From assembly GCA_947501605.1 (NCBI GenBank), contig CANMWZ010000005.1:64001-128000 (forward strand): a stretch of DNA of 64,000 bases, given 5' to 3'. Within the stretch, counting starts at the first letter, position 1, and every line of letters begins with the position of its first letter. The stretch is from Planctomycetota bacterium. GTDB taxonomy: Bacteria; Planctomycetota; UBA1135; UBA2386. The notes below the pieces were generated by a model, which saw only the letters and a list, made by a program, of their open reading frames with translations, had not been told where the DNA came from and made no database searches. The position numbers and the translations under genes are program-made. Shown here piece by piece: positions 35,340 through 42,805 of this stretch.

Positions 35340-35703
35340 GCCTGGTCCCCGTAAGCCGGGTTCTGCTGTCTGCCCGAAGGCAGCGGCGACCATTTCTCTA
35401 GGAGCGTCCTCGCGGACGCCCGCCAACGACCTACCCGAGGATCTCGGCGCGGGCAGCGCGATCCTCCTATTCGGTCTTCCTCCAGGTGGGGTTTGCCGTG
35501 CCGGCTCGCTCCTGCGAACCGCGGTGAGCTCTTACCTCGCCGTTTCACCCTTGCCGTCGCTGTCGCCAGCCGTCCGGCGGTCTATTCTCTGTGGCACTTT
35601 CCCTGTCCTTGCGGACGGTGGGCGTTACCCACCACCTTGCCCTTGGGAGCCCGGACTTTCCTCCCGCAGCGCGAAGCTGCCGGCGGTCGCCCGGGGACCA
35701 GGC
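35340..35703 (-). ncRNA. rnpB: RNase P RNA (type A)
   Basis: Minus strand carries GAGGAAAGUCCGGGC, GAAAGUGCCACAGA, GGCAAACCCCAC and CAGAACCCGGCUUAC; the terminal P1 helix GCCUGGUCCCC / GGGGACCAGGC closes the molecule. Confidence 0.97.
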
Positions 35704-35709
35704 CGACGG

Positions 35710-35718
35710 ATGGTAGCA
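35710..35718 (-). promoter_or_regulatory. Extended -10 promoter of rnpB (TGcTACCAT)
   Basis: TACCAT lies 6 nt upstream of the predicted P1 5' end and is preceded by TG. Confidence 0.65.
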
Positions 35719-35882
35719 CCACGGGGTCCAACAGGAAGGCGCGAGGAAAATTCTCCCGAAGCCACGATCGGTTGAACCAGCCCTTGTGCGCAGAGCGTAG
35801 GGTTGGCTAGCGTCTGCGGCCCCGTAGCCTCGTTCGTCTGTCCCGTTCGACACCCTTGTCCCGCATCTTCGGAGGCGCCCCC

Positions 35883-36212
35883 GTGCCTGCCGTTCCTTGC
35901 ATCAGTTTGTTTCTGCTCTGTGCCGTACTCCCCGGCCAGGCCGAACCCCTCGCTTCGCAAAAGCTGACCCCCGTTGCCGCCGAAGCCTCGGCGTCGAGTG
36001 GGGCGTTTGCACCCGAAGTCATCCCGTCGTTGCCACTGCGATTTGACCCGGTCGTCGATCGTGAGCCGCGGCCAGCACCCGTTGCCCCGCCGGGGGATCG
36101 TTTCAGCGTGCCAGAGGCAGGCGTTCTGCTCTTGGTTGGGACGAGCCTTGTCTGGCTAGGTTTTGCCCGACGCCGGCCGAGCAGTGCTCCACCGCGCCGC
36201 GTCATTCGCTGA
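35883..36212 (+). CDS. Small PEP-CTERM-type sorting-signal protein
   Basis: Signal peptide-like N-terminus, Pro-rich middle, C-terminal VPEAGVLLLVGTSLVWLGFARRR. Start at 35856 or 35883. Confidence 0.7.
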   Translation: MPAVPCISLFLLCAVLPGQAEPLASQKLTPVAAEASASSGAFAPEVIPSLPLRFDPVVDREPRPAPVAPPGDRFSVPEAGVLLLVGTSLVWLGFARRRPSSAPPRRVIR

Positions 36213-37779: not shown

Positions 37780-40700
37780 TCAGAAGTCGGAGCGAAGGGG
37801 GCGTTCGAGCCGCGGTGGCACAGGCTGCAGCCGTTGGCGTCGGGGGTCGCGCTGCGCAAACCAACGCTGTTCGGCTTGCACATCACGCACGTGGCCGAAC
37901 AGGTGGAAGCGCACGAGGTTGGAAGTGATCATCTGGATCACGGGCGGCAACAGCAGCATGTCGGCACCGCCGCCGAGGAAGCTGTCCGTCGTCACCGCCA
38001 CGTCGAGATAGCCTTCCATCGACATTTCGCCACCGCCGCGAAGCGTGATCAATGGTGACCGCAACGCCAAGTCCGAGAGATCGATCTTGCGATCGCGCAC
38101 GTTGAACTTTGCGGTCAGGTTCTCGAACCGAGGCCGGTTTTTTTCTGCCATCAAGGCGTAGATGGCGGTGAACAGAGGGACTGTCCCTAGGTTGCCATCA
38201 GCGATGGCAAGCTCGCCGCGTCCCTTCATGTCGACGAAGTCGAAACCGTCGAGACGCTCCAGTTCGATGTGGCCGCTGGTCGTGCCATGGAACGGCGTGG
38301 TGGTGAGTCCGCAGTGCACGAGGAACTCGCGCAAACTGACGCCGGCGAAGTTGAGGCTGGCAGAGAGTTGCCCTGGGCCGCCGTTCGAGTCGCCGAAGAC
38401 GTAGGTCAGCGCATCGGCTGCGGGGTCGCGTCCTTCGACGTTGCCACCGTGCAGCGAGAACTTGAGGTTCTGCAACGAGAAGTGGTCCGGCTCGACGATG
38501 AAGTCGGCGGTCGCGGTGCCAAACGGGTGGCTGAACAGCGACAGGGCGCCCTTGCTGAAGCTGCCGCGGATCGTGCCGCCGTCCTTGGTCACGCGACTCT
38601 CGGCGATCGCGAGGTTGCCGTTCACTTGTTGTAGGCGAGTGCCGAGAAGGCACTCGACGTCGAGTGCGTTGATCGAGCCTTTGAGGACCGTCTCGATGCG
38701 CTGGTCGGTGCCATCCTGGGGCAGCAGAAAGCGCAGCTGCAGGCCGTTGATGTCGATCGCGCCGCGCAGTTGCCGATCGAGCACTGCCTGCTTCATCGGA
38801 CCGACGAACAGCCGAGCAAACGTGTCGTCGAGCGGGAAACCCTGCGAACTGACGGTGAACGCGACCTCGGACCGAGCTTCCGTGGTCGACGGCCCGACAT
38901 AGCCATTGGAGCAGCTCACCAGCGCCGGTCCCATGCGCGCACGCAGGTCGGAAAAACGCAGCGCCCCATCGTGTACCTGGAGCTCGCCAGTGACCTCGGT
39001 CGCGGGCAGGGGCAGCATTTCTGCTGCGGATCGCACACCGCGTAGCAGCACGTCGTACTGGCGGTCAGACTTGCCGCCGCTGGTCTTCTGGCTCAGGACG
39101 AGGTCGACGATGCCCGATGGTCGCAACACGTCCCACGTGCCTTTGCCGACGGCACCGGTCCGCTCGAGTGTGAGGCCGAGTTCCGTGTCGAGTTCCAGCC
39201 CGCGAACCACTGCGGTCAGGTCCTCGCGATAGCCGTCCTTGCCGGTGTACAGCGTGCCCACGATCGCGAGTTCCGCTGGCGTCGCTCGCTGCGCTTGGAG
39301 CAAGCCACGCACCGCGTCGATCTGCACGTGGATCTCCTCGCCGCGACCATGCACGAACACTTGACCGCTTGCCTTCGCGACCGGCAAAGGAAACGAACTG
39401 GGCAGTGCGTGACCATCGTGTAGGTCGAGCGTCAGGTCGTAGAGCAGCTCGGCCTCGGCCTTGTTGCGACGCACATGCAGCACGGTGTCGGCGCGCCCGC
39501 TCGGTGCCAGTTCGCGCCATACGGCATCGAGCTTTGGCGCCAGCGTGGCGGTTGCCCCGCGCAGGTTCTCGTCGAGTGGGACGTTGGTGCCATCGATGCG
39601 CAGATCGATGCTGCCGAGTTCCAGTGCACCCTCTCGGTCCATCGGCGCCATGAGCTTGCCGCGCAGGTAGGCTTCACCGCCGGCGTAGCTGGCGCGGAGA
39701 TCGAGCTGCAGGCCTTCCGACCGAGCGATGATGTTGCCGGTCACGTTCTCGAGTGGCAGTGGAAAACCCTGCCACCGCGCTCGCGAGCCGAGCGGCGACA
39801 CAACGACCTGCCAAGTGCTCGCCTGGTCGCTTGTCGGTCGGATGCGCAGGCGAACGGACGCGGCGCCCTCTGGTGCAAACTGGTCGTACAGCGCGCCGTC
39901 GTCGCGCACGAGTTGCGCCAACGCCATCCGCAGCGCCGGCGTGAACTGAATCCGTGTAGCCTCGAGGTCGATGCTGACCTGCTCGGGGCCGGTGCTCTTG
40001 GGGTCAACGCGGCCTGAGATCGTGACTTCGCCACTGCCAGCCTCCGGAGCCAGTCGCGCGGTTACGTCTTCGATGCTGACGACGTTGTCGCGCAGGTGCA
40101 CGCGGCCCTCGGCGCCGACGACCGGCAGCGGAAATGCGGCCCGCGACTCGTCGGGGCCGAACCCGTGGTAGGACATCGCCACTCCGTGCAACTGCACATC
40201 AAGGTCTACGACCTCGTCGGAGTGGCCGTGCGCGCGCAAGTAGAGATCGAAGTCTGCGGTCCCGGCGGTTGGGCGCAGTCCATCGACGACGCTGCGGCCG
40301 GCCTGGAACGTCCGCAGTGCGGCGCGCACTGTGTCGTCGATCTCGACGTCGCGGCCAGTGCCGCGCACTTCGAGATGCGGATCGGTGAAGAAGCCGGAGA
40401 TCTTGGCCACAACCTCGGTCTGACCCGTGGGCAGGAGGCGCTGTCCGGTGAACTTCGCGGTGCCGCCGTCCTGCGTACTGATGACTCCGCGCACCGCCGC
40501 GCTGCGCAGCGGCACTGGGATCTCTGGCAGCGAGCAAGTCATGTCGCTGAACGTGAACGAACTGCTCGCGACTGCACCATCGGCGCCGTCGAGCGGCAAT
40601 TCGAGCTGTAGCACGAGTTCGTCGAGCTTGCCCGAGGCGACGTCGTCGCGCAGTTCGCTGCGCAACAGTGGTAGCAGACGCTGCAAGAAGGCGGCGTCGA

Positions 40701-41373
40701 CGGTCAGGTCGGCGATGCGGGCCTGAAGTCTGACGCGCTGCTGCTGCAGGTCGACTTCACCAATCACTTCCACGTCGACTTCGAGGTTCTTGCAGTGGGC
40801 GCTGCCGTGAAGGGTGCCGCGCCGCCGATCCGGGTTCCCGTCGTCGCCGAGCACTCGCTGCAGCTGCAACTCGACGTCGATGAACTCAAGATCCGGCACG
40901 CCATCGTCGACGCGGATCCGCGCGCTGCTGCGCGTGAGGCGCGCGGGCGTTACTTCGCCGATCCCAGCCGTGACGCCAGTTGCTGCCCGCTGCTCGCGCA
41001 GCAGTTTGGTGAGGTTTGGCGCGTGTGCCGCCGTGAGGTCGATGTCGACGCGCAGTCGGTCCATCTCGATCTCATGGAGTGCGAGCACGTTGCCCAACGG
41101 ATCGGTTTCGACGCCGAGTTGCACGGACTCGGCTGCAAGCAGGTTGCGGCCTTCGCGCTGCGGATCCGCGATCGTGATGTTCGACAGTGTCAGGCTGCCG
41201 CCGAACAGGTCCACCTGTGCGTTCTCGAGGTGGAAGCGCGTTGCCAGCAGTTGCTGCAGAAAGCTGCGTACGAGGCCCGTAGCCGCGCCGCTGCGTTGCA
41301 GCACGTACCAGGTGCCCAACATCAACGCTGCGACGATGGTCGCAGTCAGGATTGAGATGCGTCGCCAGCTCAT
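37780..41373 (-). CDS. AsmA-like/TamB-like large envelope protein
   Basis: About 1197 aa, N-terminal TM anchor, repetitive beta-strand pattern, AsmA_2-like C-terminus (L.SPLITL.G.G...G.LD). Confidence 0.75.
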   Translation of the reverse strand: MSWRRISILTATIVAALMLGTWYVLQRSGAATGLVRSFLQQLLATRFHLENAQVDLFGGSLTLSNITIADPQREGRNLLAAESVQLGVETDPLGNVLALHEIEMDRLRVDIDLTAAHAPNLTKLLREQRAATGVTAGIGEVTPARLTRSSARIRVDDGVPDLEFIDVELQLQRVLGDDGNPDRRRGTLHGSAHCKNLEVDVEVIGEVDLQQQRVRLQARIADLTVDAAFLQRLLPLLRSELRDDVASGKLDELVLQLELPLDGADGAVASSSFTFSDMTCSLPEIPVPLRSAAVRGVISTQDGGTAKFTGQRLLPTGQTEVVAKISGFFTDPHLEVRGTGRDVEIDDTVRAALRTFQAGRSVVDGLRPTAGTADFDLYLRAHGHSDEVVDLDVQLHGVAMSYHGFGPDESRAAFPLPVVGAEGRVHLRDNVVSIEDVTARLAPEAGSGEVTISGRVDPKSTGPEQVSIDLEATRIQFTPALRMALAQLVRDDGALYDQFAPEGAASVRLRIRPTSDQASTWQVVVSPLGSRARWQGFPLPLENVTGNIIARSEGLQLDLRASYAGGEAYLRGKLMAPMDREGALELGSIDLRIDGTNVPLDENLRGATATLAPKLDAVWRELAPSGRADTVLHVRRNKAEAELLYDLTLDLHDGHALPSSFPLPVAKASGQVFVHGRGEEIHVQIDAVRGLLQAQRATPAELAIVGTLYTGKDGYREDLTAVVRGLELDTELGLTLERTGAVGKGTWDVLRPSGIVDLVLSQKTSGGKSDRQYDVLLRGVRSAAEMLPLPATEVTGELQVHDGALRFSDLRARMGPALVSCSNGYVGPSTTEARSEVAFTVSSQGFPLDDTFARLFVGPMKQAVLDRQLRGAIDINGLQLRFLLPQDGTDQRIETVLKGSINALDVECLLGTRLQQVNGNLAIAESRVTKDGGTIRGSFSKGALSLFSHPFGTATADFIVEPDHFSLQNLKFSLHGGNVEGRDPAADALTYVFGDSNGGPGQLSASLNFAGVSLREFLVHCGLTTTPFHGTTSGHIELERLDGFDFVDMKGRGELAIADGNLGTVPLFTAIYALMAEKNRPRFENLTAKFNVRDRKIDLSDLALRSPLITLRGGGEMSMEGYLDVAVTTDSFLGGGADMLLLPPVIQMITSNLVRFHLFGHVRDVQAEQRWFAQRDPRRQRLQPVPPRLERPLRSDF

Positions 41374-41551: not shown

Positions 41552-41579
41552 TTGACAGTGCGCGCGCAAAGGTCAAACT
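41552..41579 (+). promoter_or_regulatory. Putative sigma70 promoter for the histone-fold gene
   Basis: Perfect TTGACA at 41552-41557 with CAAACT 16 nt later; embedded in a TTTGAC-N15-GTCAAA inverted repeat. Confidence 0.45.
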
Positions 41580-41648
41580 CGCGCCCCATTCAGCGTTGGG
41601 ATGTTTCCACGCTGTCCGGTCAGAACCCTTTCACGAAGAGTCATTCCA

Positions 41649-41849
41649 ATGGCTGCCAAGAAGACCAAGAAGGCCGCTACCGGCGACCTCATCATCTCGA
41701 AGTCGCGCACCAAGGCCGCGGTCAAGAAGTGCAACGTCTCGTCGGACTTCTATCCGGCGCTCGACAAGGCCGTCCGCTCGCTGATTCAGATTGCTGAGTC
41801 GCGTGCGACCGGCAACAAGCGCAAGACGCTCCGCCCGCAGGATCTGTGA
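41649..41849 (+). CDS. Prokaryotic histone-fold protein (short alpha3 type) with a Lys-rich N-terminal tail
   Basis: MAAKKTKKAATG-DLIISKSRTKAAVKKCNVSSDFYPALDKAVRSLIQIAESRATGNKRKTLRPQDL; histone L2-alpha3 signature RKT....D; strongly biased (AAG, GCC, CGC) codons. Confidence 0.88.
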   Translation: MAAKKTKKAATGDLIISKSRTKAAVKKCNVSSDFYPALDKAVRSLIQIAESRATGNKRKTLRPQDL

Positions 41850-41894
41850 TCCTCGGAGGAGCCCGGCATCAAGCGCTCTCGGGCGTGAGGTGAC

Positions 41895-41927
41895 GAGAGG
41901 TCGGCCTGCTCACGCGGGCCGATTCTC
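41895..41927. terminator. Hairpin downstream of the histone gene, probable terminator between convergent genes
   Basis: GAGAGGTCGGCCTGC-TCAC-GCGGGCCGATTCTC; U-tract weak. Confidence 0.5.
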
Positions 41928-42127
41928 TGTACGGGGTGTTTCTCTGCGGGCCGGCGAGTTCCGTCGACGCCATGGTGCTCGCTACCGTGCTGCGGTCGGG
42001 CCCCGGCTACTTGGCCCCTGATTTTCTGGCCTGCTGCGGCCTGCTTGCCGCTGTCTGTCGTGCGGTTGCCTTGTGCGTGCTGCCGTTCGGCGTGCTGTTG
42101 TCTGGGGCGGCGACAGCAGCAACCAGT

Positions 42128-42805
42128 TCAACCGACGTACGAGCCGGTGAGATAGAGGGGCTCCAGTTCGAGTGGCGACACCTCCACCAGGCGCAGTTCG
42201 GCAGCAAACAGGGTCGAGGCCGAAACGTGCGGAATCGGCATCAGGACCGCGCCGGAGGCCGAAATCGTGGCCCCTATGCGTGCCTCGACCGCGGCGTCAA
42301 TCAGCACCACACAGTTGCGATCGAGCTGGCTGACAGCTTCGGCGTCGCTGGTGAGTCTTGGCGCATGCAGACTCTCGATCTGACCGCCGACGGCTCGGTG
42401 GGCGCCAAACTGCACGCGCTTCTGGCGACCGTCGAGCAGAACACAGATCTGTCGGTCGGCCAGCTCGGGGTTGGCGCGCAGAGCCGCCGCGGCCACGACC
42501 TCGAGGCCCTCGGCGGAGAGGATCCGGGCGCCCGAGAACGCAGCCAACGTGCGCGCGAACGTCACGGCGACGCGAAGACCGATGTAGGAACCAGGACCGC
42601 GATCGACGCGAAGTTCACGGACCTCGCTGGCGGCCATCCCCGCCTGCTGCAGCGCCTCTTGGACGAGCACGGCCAGATCGACGCGCTGGGCGATCGGGGC
42701 CCGCGTTTCCGACAGCGTGCCGCGACGTCCTACGGCGACGGCGAATGCCGTGTTGCCATCGACGTTGCCGCCGAGGATCGCGAGTGCATCCAGCTGTGGG
42801 CTCAT
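42128..42805 (-). CDS. tsaB: tRNA t6A biosynthesis protein TsaB
   Basis: GPGSYIGLRVAVTFARTLA, LDGRQ..V, LEPLYL. Confidence 0.85.
   Translation of the reverse strand: MSPQLDALAILGGNVDGNTAFAVAVGRRGTLSETRAPIAQRVDLAVLVQEALQQAGMAASEVRELRVDRGPGSYIGLRVAVTFARTLAAFSGARILSAEGLEVVAAAALRANPELADRQICVLLDGRQKRVQFGAHRAVGGQIESLHAPRLTSDAEAVSQLDRNCVVLIDAAVEARIGATISASGAVLMPIPHVSASTLFAAELRLVEVSPLELEPLYLTGSYVG

Follow-up and report, generated by a model that had tools for sequence, protein, structure and literature searches.

What does a stand-alone gene for a protein of 66 amino acids do in a planctomycete, and what is the lysine-rich stretch at the start of its product for? The gene lies in a window of 64 000 nucleotides (assembly GCA_947501605.1, contig CANMWZ010000005.1, positions 64,001 to 128,000), and an earlier note, made from the letters alone, had read it as a bacterial histone-fold gene with a eukaryote-like tail. 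Here, the gene, its fold and class markers, the predicted self-assembly of its product, the variability of the tail, the conserved promoter and a hairpin in the mRNA leader were addressed by computation. The host is a planctomycete, as the note had supposed, considering that proteins 86–97% identical are found in Planctomycetota MAGs. The gene is a further member of the published family of bacterial face-to-face (FtF) histones, to which it adds one clean example.

Gene, reading frame and start

The ORF was confirmed as a stand-alone gene, with a divergent gene upstream and a convergent gene downstream (Table 1). Its product has a computed mass of 7.2 kDa, a pI of 10.5 and 11 Lys. No second histone was found in the source genome (4.65 Mb, 91% complete), where a search at E up to 10 returned one match.

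An alternative in-frame ATG at 41601 would give a product of 82 aa. This start was rejected because it is private to the source genome, being absent from all 19 family relatives, whose upstream frame was followed to the first stop or over at most 30 codons. In a single RNA-library contig, the A at 41601 is replaced by T, turning ATG into TTG. Database homologues start at the Met equivalent to that of the 66-aa form. Since no relative has the upstream ATG and the homologues begin at the same Met, the start at 41649 and the tail are considered real; a true start downstream of the tail, the possibility raised against the earlier reading, is not what the tail-bearing homologues show. The comparison of the core codons with those of five relatives revealed 7–14 synonymous and 1–5 non-synonymous changes. 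The gene is therefore genuine and under coding constraint.

Table 1. Features of the histone locus and its neighbours (window coordinates).
Feature	Position	Strand	Basis
AsmA/DUF748-like long protein, divergent upstream neighbour	37780-41373	-	Pfam DUF748, E 8.7e-10, below curated cut-off
-35 element TTGACA	41552-41557	+	sequence; conserved pattern
-10-like element CAAACT (3/6 to TATAAT), spacer 16	41574-41579	+	function inferred
Leader stem-loop, start of predicted mRNA leader	41591-41614	+	folding, covariation
FtF histone gene	41649-41849	+	66 aa; translation matches the residues quoted in the earlier note; ends PQDL-stop
Tail, residues 1-12, four Lys, net +4	41649-41684	+	pLDDT, fold-alignment boundary, charge
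Histone fold of the alpha3 (face-to-face) type, residues 13-66, with stop codon	41685-41849	+	profile, Foldseek, VIA-align, markers
GC-rich hairpin, probably terminating the transcript or protecting its 3' end	41895-41927	+	fold
TsaB-like (TsaD family) gene, convergent downstream neighbour	42128-42805	-	Pfam TsaD, E 2.6e-14

Fold and class markers

In the AlphaFold2 model (mean pLDDT 80.5), helices span residues 18–24, 34–55 and 63–65. The three-helix histone fold is present, its best matches are histones, and the lengths of helix 2 (22 residues) and helix 3 (3 residues) are those of the alpha3 class of Schwab 2024 (short helix 2, helix 3 of 3–4 residues). The alpha1-L1-alpha2-L2-short alpha3 layout, for which the earlier note had pointed to Bd0055 of Bdellovibrio bacteriovorus (HBb), agrees with the helices of the model and with the structural match to HBb given below. 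The full-length helix 3 (about 10 residues) of nucleosomal HMf-type, Asgard and eukaryotic histones is absent, the chain stopping at L66, one residue past the clamp Asp.

The matches point to two solved histones, the Thermococcus kodakarensis protein HTkC (PDB 9F2C) and HLp from Leptospira perolatii (PDB 9QT0-9QT2). A single-sequence search of the PDB returned HTkC with E 0.0017 and HLp with E 0.0038. When a profile of 110 homologues was compared with 177,635 PDB sequences, these values improved to 4.5e-8 (9f2c) and 5.4e-5 (9qt0), and no further match, HBb included, appeared below E 0.7. Foldseek ranked HTkC, HLp and then HBb, with rmsd 1.3–1.4 Å over 56–58 columns for the former two and no match reaching E 0.001. 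VIA-align gave tied Z scores for HLp (7.2), HTkC (7.0) and HBb (6.8), with rmsd 1.2–1.5 Å over 53–54 residues, compared with Z 5.1 or less for eukaryotic histone folds; superposition gave 1.2–1.5 Å on the same three structures as against 2.7 Å on the nucleosomal archaeal histone HPhA. These searches, which the earlier note had proposed as checks, bear out a histone fold of the short-alpha3 type. However, HBb, a dimer, ties with HLp and HTkC in these scores, so that a tetramer cannot be told from a dimer by shape alone; it is the sequence markers that decide the FtF class.

FtF histones have been defined by a predicted ring tetramer involving K11, R41 and N45 (numbering of a Haloferax protein) and by the motif RxTxxxxD, the marker set being K11, R41, N45, R47, T49 and D54 (PMC11390915). 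By spacing, these residues map to K22, R52, N56, R58, T60 and D65. Thus, the conserved Lys of helix 1 is present as K22, the RxTxxxxD motif as R58, T60 and D65, and the interface Arg and Asn, which the bacterial dimer histones are described as lacking (PMC11390915), as R52 and N56, with the C-terminus right after the motif. None of the six residues varies, and neither do K18 and R20, across all 82 non-redundant homologues (103 loci, less three without match, four dropped for no start and 14 collapsed duplicates). The chain ends one residue past the Asp in all 82 (79 DL, 3 DI), as is demanded by the FtF salt bridge to the terminal carboxyl described for HTkC (bioRxiv 10.64898/2025.12.06.692711).

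Family databases were less informative. Neither Pfam (E up to 1) nor NCBIfam has a family for the protein, and a FabI match with E 0.085 was discarded as noise. The earlier note had placed the protein near the archaeal DUF1931/face-to-face histones; the face-to-face part stands, HTkC and HLp being the best matches, whereas DUF1931 (PF09123) matched neither the protein nor, at E 0.1, anything genome-wide. Some database entries are nevertheless named DUF1931. In the ESM Atlas, Myxococcota/Planctomycetota clusters were found at 0.93–0.95, and a further cluster, at 0.86 and with CBFD_NFYB_HMF in 17% of its members, is a lead only.

Predicted assembly and DNA contacts

A four-copy model scored 0.88, compared with 0.00 for the best of three controls; the runs shared no less than 97% of their contacts, with a partner pLDDT of 83 or more. 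Among proteins solved as pairs, 20 of 30 reach the mark used, as against 1 of 23 among those solved as single chains, figures that are rough for the present case. The cross-dimer contact, made with one neighbour, involves residues 51–52, 55–56 and 64–65, and was scored for one chain only. The model supports self-assembly, and its pass may stem from likeness to the solved FtF histones. The residues by which HTkC contacts DNA, K7/S8/K9/K11/K52/T53 (bioRxiv 10.64898/2025.12.06.692711), align with K18/S19/R20/K22/K59/T60. Judging from markers and homology, a tetramer that wraps DNA is likely.

The N-terminal tail

The tail is predicted to be disordered (pLDDT below 50 for residues 2–9). The alignment to the HTkC and HLp folds begins at residue 13, and the contacts made with confidence in the four-copy model include no residue below 13. 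In the 82 homologues, the tail, taken as the stretch before an xDL/xEL triplet, is 6–23 aa long (median 12), consists of 40% Lys and 31% Ala, and carries a net charge of +2 to +11. What is kept is neither its sequence nor its length: 78 of the 82 tails are distinct, lengths differ in 3001 of 3321 pairs, and mean pairwise identity is 0.47 for the tail and 0.76 for the core (0.70 and 0.93 in the 109 closest pairs). Ser and Thr are both absent from 20 tails. One Thr codon found in the tails of four genus relatives (proteins 90–97% identical) is missing from the source-genome copy. Position 4 is Lys in 68 tails and Arg in 9, and position 5 is Lys in 58; it should be noted that positions 2–4 are partly fixed by the start-finding rule used. 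These Lys-rich positions leave room for a fixed modifiable site. The charge of the tail shows no compensation for that of the core (Spearman -0.09, p 0.44).

The close homologues keep a basic tail that is translated and, in the model of the present protein, disordered, and the earlier claim survives the possibility that close relatives lack it. 'Eukaryote-like', as the note had called it, is apt for the charge and the disorder, but not for a tail that is short, variable and often devoid of Ser and Thr. As for a regulatory tail, the basic disordered extension is there, whereas a conserved sequence or site register is not. Because charge is kept while sequence and length are free, an electrostatic role fits, and an electrostatic aid to DNA binding would fit better than a modification code. 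Nor is the tail a new feature: tails on bacterial FtF histones have been published, and are reported as common, mostly positive, without conserved sequence and H3-like (PMC11390915). In the literature searched, which largely excluded subscription journals, no test of the function or modification of a bacterial FtF histone tail was found.

In other families of the order, judged from the 17 of 20 regions for which a match was listed, the shortest tail has about 2 residues (L114) and the longest about 43 (L123), and the long ones are AKK/TKK-type repeats. Six of these loci (L108, L113, L115, L116, L121 and L123) encode a histone core with an H1-like Lys/Ala/Thr tail of about 20–43 residues, more striking than the one described here.

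Lys-rich starts also occur elsewhere in the source genome, where 29 ATG sites, many of them internal, were listed. A stand-alone SWIB/MDM2-domain protein of 91 aa (L125:377-652 minus, G000:C9) has a MAAKK Lys/Ala start like that of the histone; SWIB matches are absent from all 14 control genomes and present in 48 of the 301 genomes of the phylum sample. A 68-aa ORF without Pfam family (L126:393-599 minus, G000:C6) is preceded by a purine-rich site and begins with a Lys/Ala-rich stretch. A 1055-aa ORF (L127:339-3506, G000:C22), which we take to be aconitase-like, ends in an H1-like Lys/Ala/Pro-rich tail of more than 100 residues.

Promoter, leader and expression

The putative promoter TTGACA of the earlier note is present and conserved. 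The pattern TTGAC(A/T), followed 16–17 nt on by a second element, occurs in 20 of 20 family loci (the gene's own and 19 others), compared with 45 of 20,000 random 130-mers; the second element is CAAACT in 14 of the 20 and fits xAxxxT in all of them. A further 39 of 76 loci, some of which duplicate family loci, show the pattern. A scan for consensus promoters called none, CAAACT being below its threshold.

The predicted leader contains a stem-loop that is absent from the earlier note. A central hairpin of at least 9 pairs was found in 29 of 33 leaders (9 of the 42 were excluded, being near-duplicates or distant from the family) and in 1423 of 3300 shuffles, with a mean z of -2.06. The hairpin of the source genome is modest (z -1.9 on 48 nt, -0.44 for the whole leader). 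No consensus pairs emerged when 32 leaders were put into one alignment, since they fall into three sequence groups that do not align; subgroups were then picked by eye. In a subgroup of 16 leaders, 95% of cells are paired with 9 two-sided changes, and in a subgroup of 9 leaders, 90% are paired with 11 two-sided changes; in both cases, 0 of 500 shuffles scored as high, a result that kinship among leaders alone can produce without any structure. A third subgroup of 6, which includes the source-genome copy, shows weaker covariation. In the largest group, G-U pairs outnumber A-C pairs by 25 to 5, which speaks for folding of the sense-strand RNA. The loop motif GCCGAGGGGG is nearly unchanged in 8 of 9 leaders of one of the three sequence groups (leaders L001-L103).

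The stem-loop has no Rfam match at E up to 5, and a literature search on leaders of bacterial histone genes showed nothing relevant among the papers listed. Hairpins at the 5' end stabilise bacterial mRNAs; feedback of the histone on the leader hairpin would be a guess.

The downstream hairpin reported in the earlier note is a real fold with an energy of -24 kcal/mol, although it lacks a U-run and was not called by a terminator scan. Its z is -5.4 when a 40-nt piece picked by eye is taken, and -1.4 over all 91 nt of the stretch. In genus relatives, inspected by eye, a hairpin followed by a T-run is found at the same place.

The note had also read high expression from the codon usage. The bias exists: the CAI, with 20 ribosomal-protein-cluster genes as the reference, is 0.90, a value reached by 0.74% of 20,000 65-codon windows. 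However, the usage matches the majority codons of the genome and only weakly the ribosomal-protein signature, the ribosomal-versus-background score being reached by 8.1% of windows and 4.5% of amino-acid-matched draws, and the bias was therefore rejected as proof of high expression. The RNA evidence comes from four of 24 runs, the 14 of small share being left aside. RNA-library contigs from two studies are identical to most of the gene and its 3' flank (X3, 41691-42026; X5, 41681-41963), which indicates presence only; the set X1 spans intergenic DNA as well, and the gene body is not among the pieces of X6 that were listed. Since these data are contigs, their depth cannot rank the expression of the gene.

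Distribution and genomic neighbourhood

In a species-level genome collection, relatives are encoded by 496 of 514 candidate stretches; Myxococcota, Eisenbacteria and Methylomirabilota are among the hosts in the 80 listed. A protein search gave 2157 relatives among 2162 candidates of 36–116 aa. Of 24 genomes of the family, 23 have the histone, as do 10 of 16 others of the order; in a sample of the phylum, 136 of 301 genomes had a match, and two large families had none (0/16 and 0/17). More divergent matches (E 1e-11 to 2e-4) were observed at G016:C72:28338-28523, G020:C20:29125-29349 and G032:C3:209231-209389; they are the sole copy in two genomes of the family and a second copy in one genome of the order.

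Long forms, of 140–2000 aa, account for 52 matches among 7998 scored candidates. Inspection of 14 of the 52 showed 11 upstream start mis-calls, one frameshifted call, one C-terminal extension (P0151) and one fusion (P0159), and no conserved fusion to a reader or enzyme was seen among these 14. P0151 and P0159, in which the histone core is followed by a C-terminal extension or a further domain, are single sequences that may be frameshifts or real fusions.

Among 41 relatives, SWIB matches were found in 6 of 7 histone-negative and 12 of 34 histone-positive genomes. SWIB as a substitute for the histone was rejected on the phylum sample, where, counted by eye, 19 of 48 SWIB-positive genomes have a histone, compared with 136 of 301 overall. 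The source genome also encodes two small stand-alone SET-domain proteins (L129:1354-1932, G000:C39; L130:1405-1896, G000:C19).

By tblastn against 130 loci, of which 103 are histone loci with long flanks, the AsmA/DUF748-like neighbour recurs in 50 and the TsaB-like neighbour in 30. Further upstream, on the minus strand at about 35500-35800 of the window, there is what we take, from motifs in shadow ORFs, to be an RNase P RNA-like gene. Next to it, a 118-aa ORF (35856-36212, plus strand) without Pfam match has a signal-like start and a C-terminus with VPEA, a hydrophobic run and an Arg cluster, presumably a sorting signal resembling a PEP-CTERM variant.

Role in chromatin

The description of the protein as a major chromatin protein was an inference of the earlier note, and three HU/IHF-family genes coexist with the histone in the source genome. 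The link that the note drew to the condensed nucleoids of planctomycetes is also weak. In one supplementary workbook of Hocher 2023, Pirellula, Planctopirus, Isosphaera, Thermogutta and Phycisphaera mikurensis appear in the genome list only and not in the histone table, and Gemmata does not appear in that workbook at all (PMC10627809); the Gemmata draft genome has been reported to contain no histone homologue (PMC3440768). Because these genera have no listed histone, an FtF histone is unlikely to be the cause of condensed nucleoids across the phylum.

Proposed function and alternatives

In our judgement, the protein is probably an FtF histone that forms a wrapping ring tetramer, with a tail acting mainly by charge. 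The single-copy housekeeping gene would encode a chain that pairs into a histone handshake dimer, and two dimers would associate by way of the helix 2 end, loop 2 and the helix 3 stub (R52, N56, R58 and the free carboxyl of L66). The resulting ring-shaped tetramer would wrap about 50–60 bp of DNA without sequence specificity, beside HU/IHF. Its ring shape, wrapping and abundance are inferred from HLp and HTkC. As for a possible role of the tail, the charge of four floppy Lys/Ala tails may add affinity, grip flanking DNA or aid the packing of neighbouring particles, and selection would maintain that charge rather than sequence or length.

Two other readings concern the tail. It could be a platform for regulated modification, on which dedicated enzymes methylate or acetylate the lysines and thereby adjust how DNA is wrapped or compacted; histone-tail control would then exist in an independent bacterial form. 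The source genome does encode one sirtuin, one HDAC-family protein and two SET-domain proteins, but all of these genes are on contigs other than that of the histone, and the sirtuin and HDAC families match in 10 and 9 of 14 control genomes, respectively. For SET, 21 of the 34 histone-positive genomes and 1 of the 7 histone-negative ones gave matches, these genomes being kin and hence not independent; the other 13 histone-positive ones gave none. The first lysines hold their distance from the N-terminus in most tails, and Asgard tails are abundantly methylated though not homologous to eukaryotic ones (bioRxiv 10.64898/2026.07.02.735847), so variability of sequence is compatible with marks. Against this stand the range of tail lengths within the order (~2 to ~43 residues), the Arg at position 4 of some tails, the tails devoid of Ser and Thr, and the published view, for ZZ histones, that a tail reader is unlikely for want of a conserved tail sequence (PMC11390915). 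On the whole, we regard regulated modification as unlikely. Quite unlikely, in our view, is that the tail is a generic Lys/Ala start or appendage of the nucleic-acid-binding proteins of this lineage, serving translation start, solubility or nucleoid localisation with little part in wrapping. The SWIB-domain protein with its MAAKK and Lys/Ala run, the other Lys-rich ORF starts and the Lys/Ala/Pro-tailed 1055-aa ORF would suit such an appendage, as would the existence of nearly tail-less homologues (L114 and one published homologue) and the fact that HLp wraps DNA by its core, its first 6–7 residues being unresolved (PMC12701072). Yet a net charge of +2 or more is kept in 82 of 82 close homologues, and the 20–43-residue tails of several order relatives would exceed the needs of a translation start.

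The remaining alternative concerns the core: a dimer that bends or coats DNA as HBb does, and not a wrapping tetramer. The FtF Arg and Asn, missing in bacterial dimers (PMC11390915), are invariant here, HBb had no sequence-profile match, and the four-copy model shows a cross-dimer contact at the interface residues. The structure scores are tied, and the Lys of the RKT motif, linked to dimers and nucleosomal histones (PMC11390915), is present; however, HTkC too has RKT. We consider a dimer of this kind very improbable.

A wider conjecture, which we hold to be improbable as well, is that tail regulation arose separately in bacteria, with SET, sirtuin or HDAC-family enzymes writing and erasing marks on the first lysines, tail length (~2 to 43 residues) acting as a dial of compaction, and the leader stem-loop setting or feeding back on supply. 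Should the tails turn out to carry enzymatic marks, regulation through histone tails would have an origin in bacteria in addition to that in the Asgard/eukaryote line. The subfamily itself is a natural series with a nearly constant 55-residue core and tails of about 2 to 43 residues, which would make tail function testable in vitro.

Comparison with known histones

With the tailed nucleosomal histones of eukaryotes and Asgard archaea, the protein shares the histone fold and a disordered basic N-terminal tail. The fold scores are lower (Z about 5 or less, rmsd 2–6 Å), helices 2 and 3 are short here, and the tail has 12 aa as against 32–64 in eukaryotes and about 16–32 in Asgard archaea (bioRxiv 10.64898/2026.07.02.735847), with a sequence that is not conserved. 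With HBb it shares the alpha3-truncated fold (rmsd 1.5 Å over 53 residues), but identity is 24–26%, and HBb belongs to the bacterial dimer class described as having no FtF Arg and Asn (PMC11390915).

HTkC is the best match by profile and by Foldseek and shares the motifs of helix 1, loop 1 and loop 2, although loop 1 is four residues shorter here. R45 of HTkC, whose mutant R45A behaves like a dimer (bioRxiv 10.64898/2025.12.06.692711), corresponds to R52, and RKT is common to both. HTkC, however, is archaeal and tail-less and is reported to have His at the position of the clamp Asp (bioRxiv 10.64898/2025.12.06.692711), whereas the present protein has Asp and a tail.

HLp shares the fold at 37% identity (rmsd 1.2 Å over 54 residues), and its interface residues R49/N53/R55 and RD clamp R55-D62 correspond to R52/N56/R58/D65 (PMC12701072). 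It is a tetramer in solution, protects 35–72 bp and wraps DNA by its core (Hu et al. 2025, PMC12701072). Its N-terminal extension of about 7 residues, unresolved in the crystal structures (PMC12701072), compares with 12 residues and four Lys here. Leptospira is said to have no other nucleoid proteins (PMC12701072), in contrast with the HU/IHF genes of the source genome, and the HLp gene neighbours SMC and MAP rather than AsmA-like and TsaB-like genes.

Planctomycetota are among the main bacterial holders of FtF histones (PMC11390915), and Table S1 of Hocher 2023 contains eight rows with the IISK motif, listed rather than studied, of which four are labelled Deltaproteobacteria, Proteobacteria or bacterium (PMC10627809). 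Rows 271, 276 and 277 of the same table, from the complete genomes of Limihaloglobus and two Sedimentisphaera, are histones of 100 aa that have the FtF Arg/Asn motif and a tail of about 45 residues (PMC10627809); a literature search on Sedimentisphaera and histone returned nothing relevant. The eight IISK rows include a UBA1135 protein of 56 aa with no tail, others of 95–99 aa with tails of about 40 residues, and a UBA2386 planctomycete protein that, with 67 aa, the same NVSSDFY motif and a MAAKK tail, closely resembles the one described here (PMC10627809).
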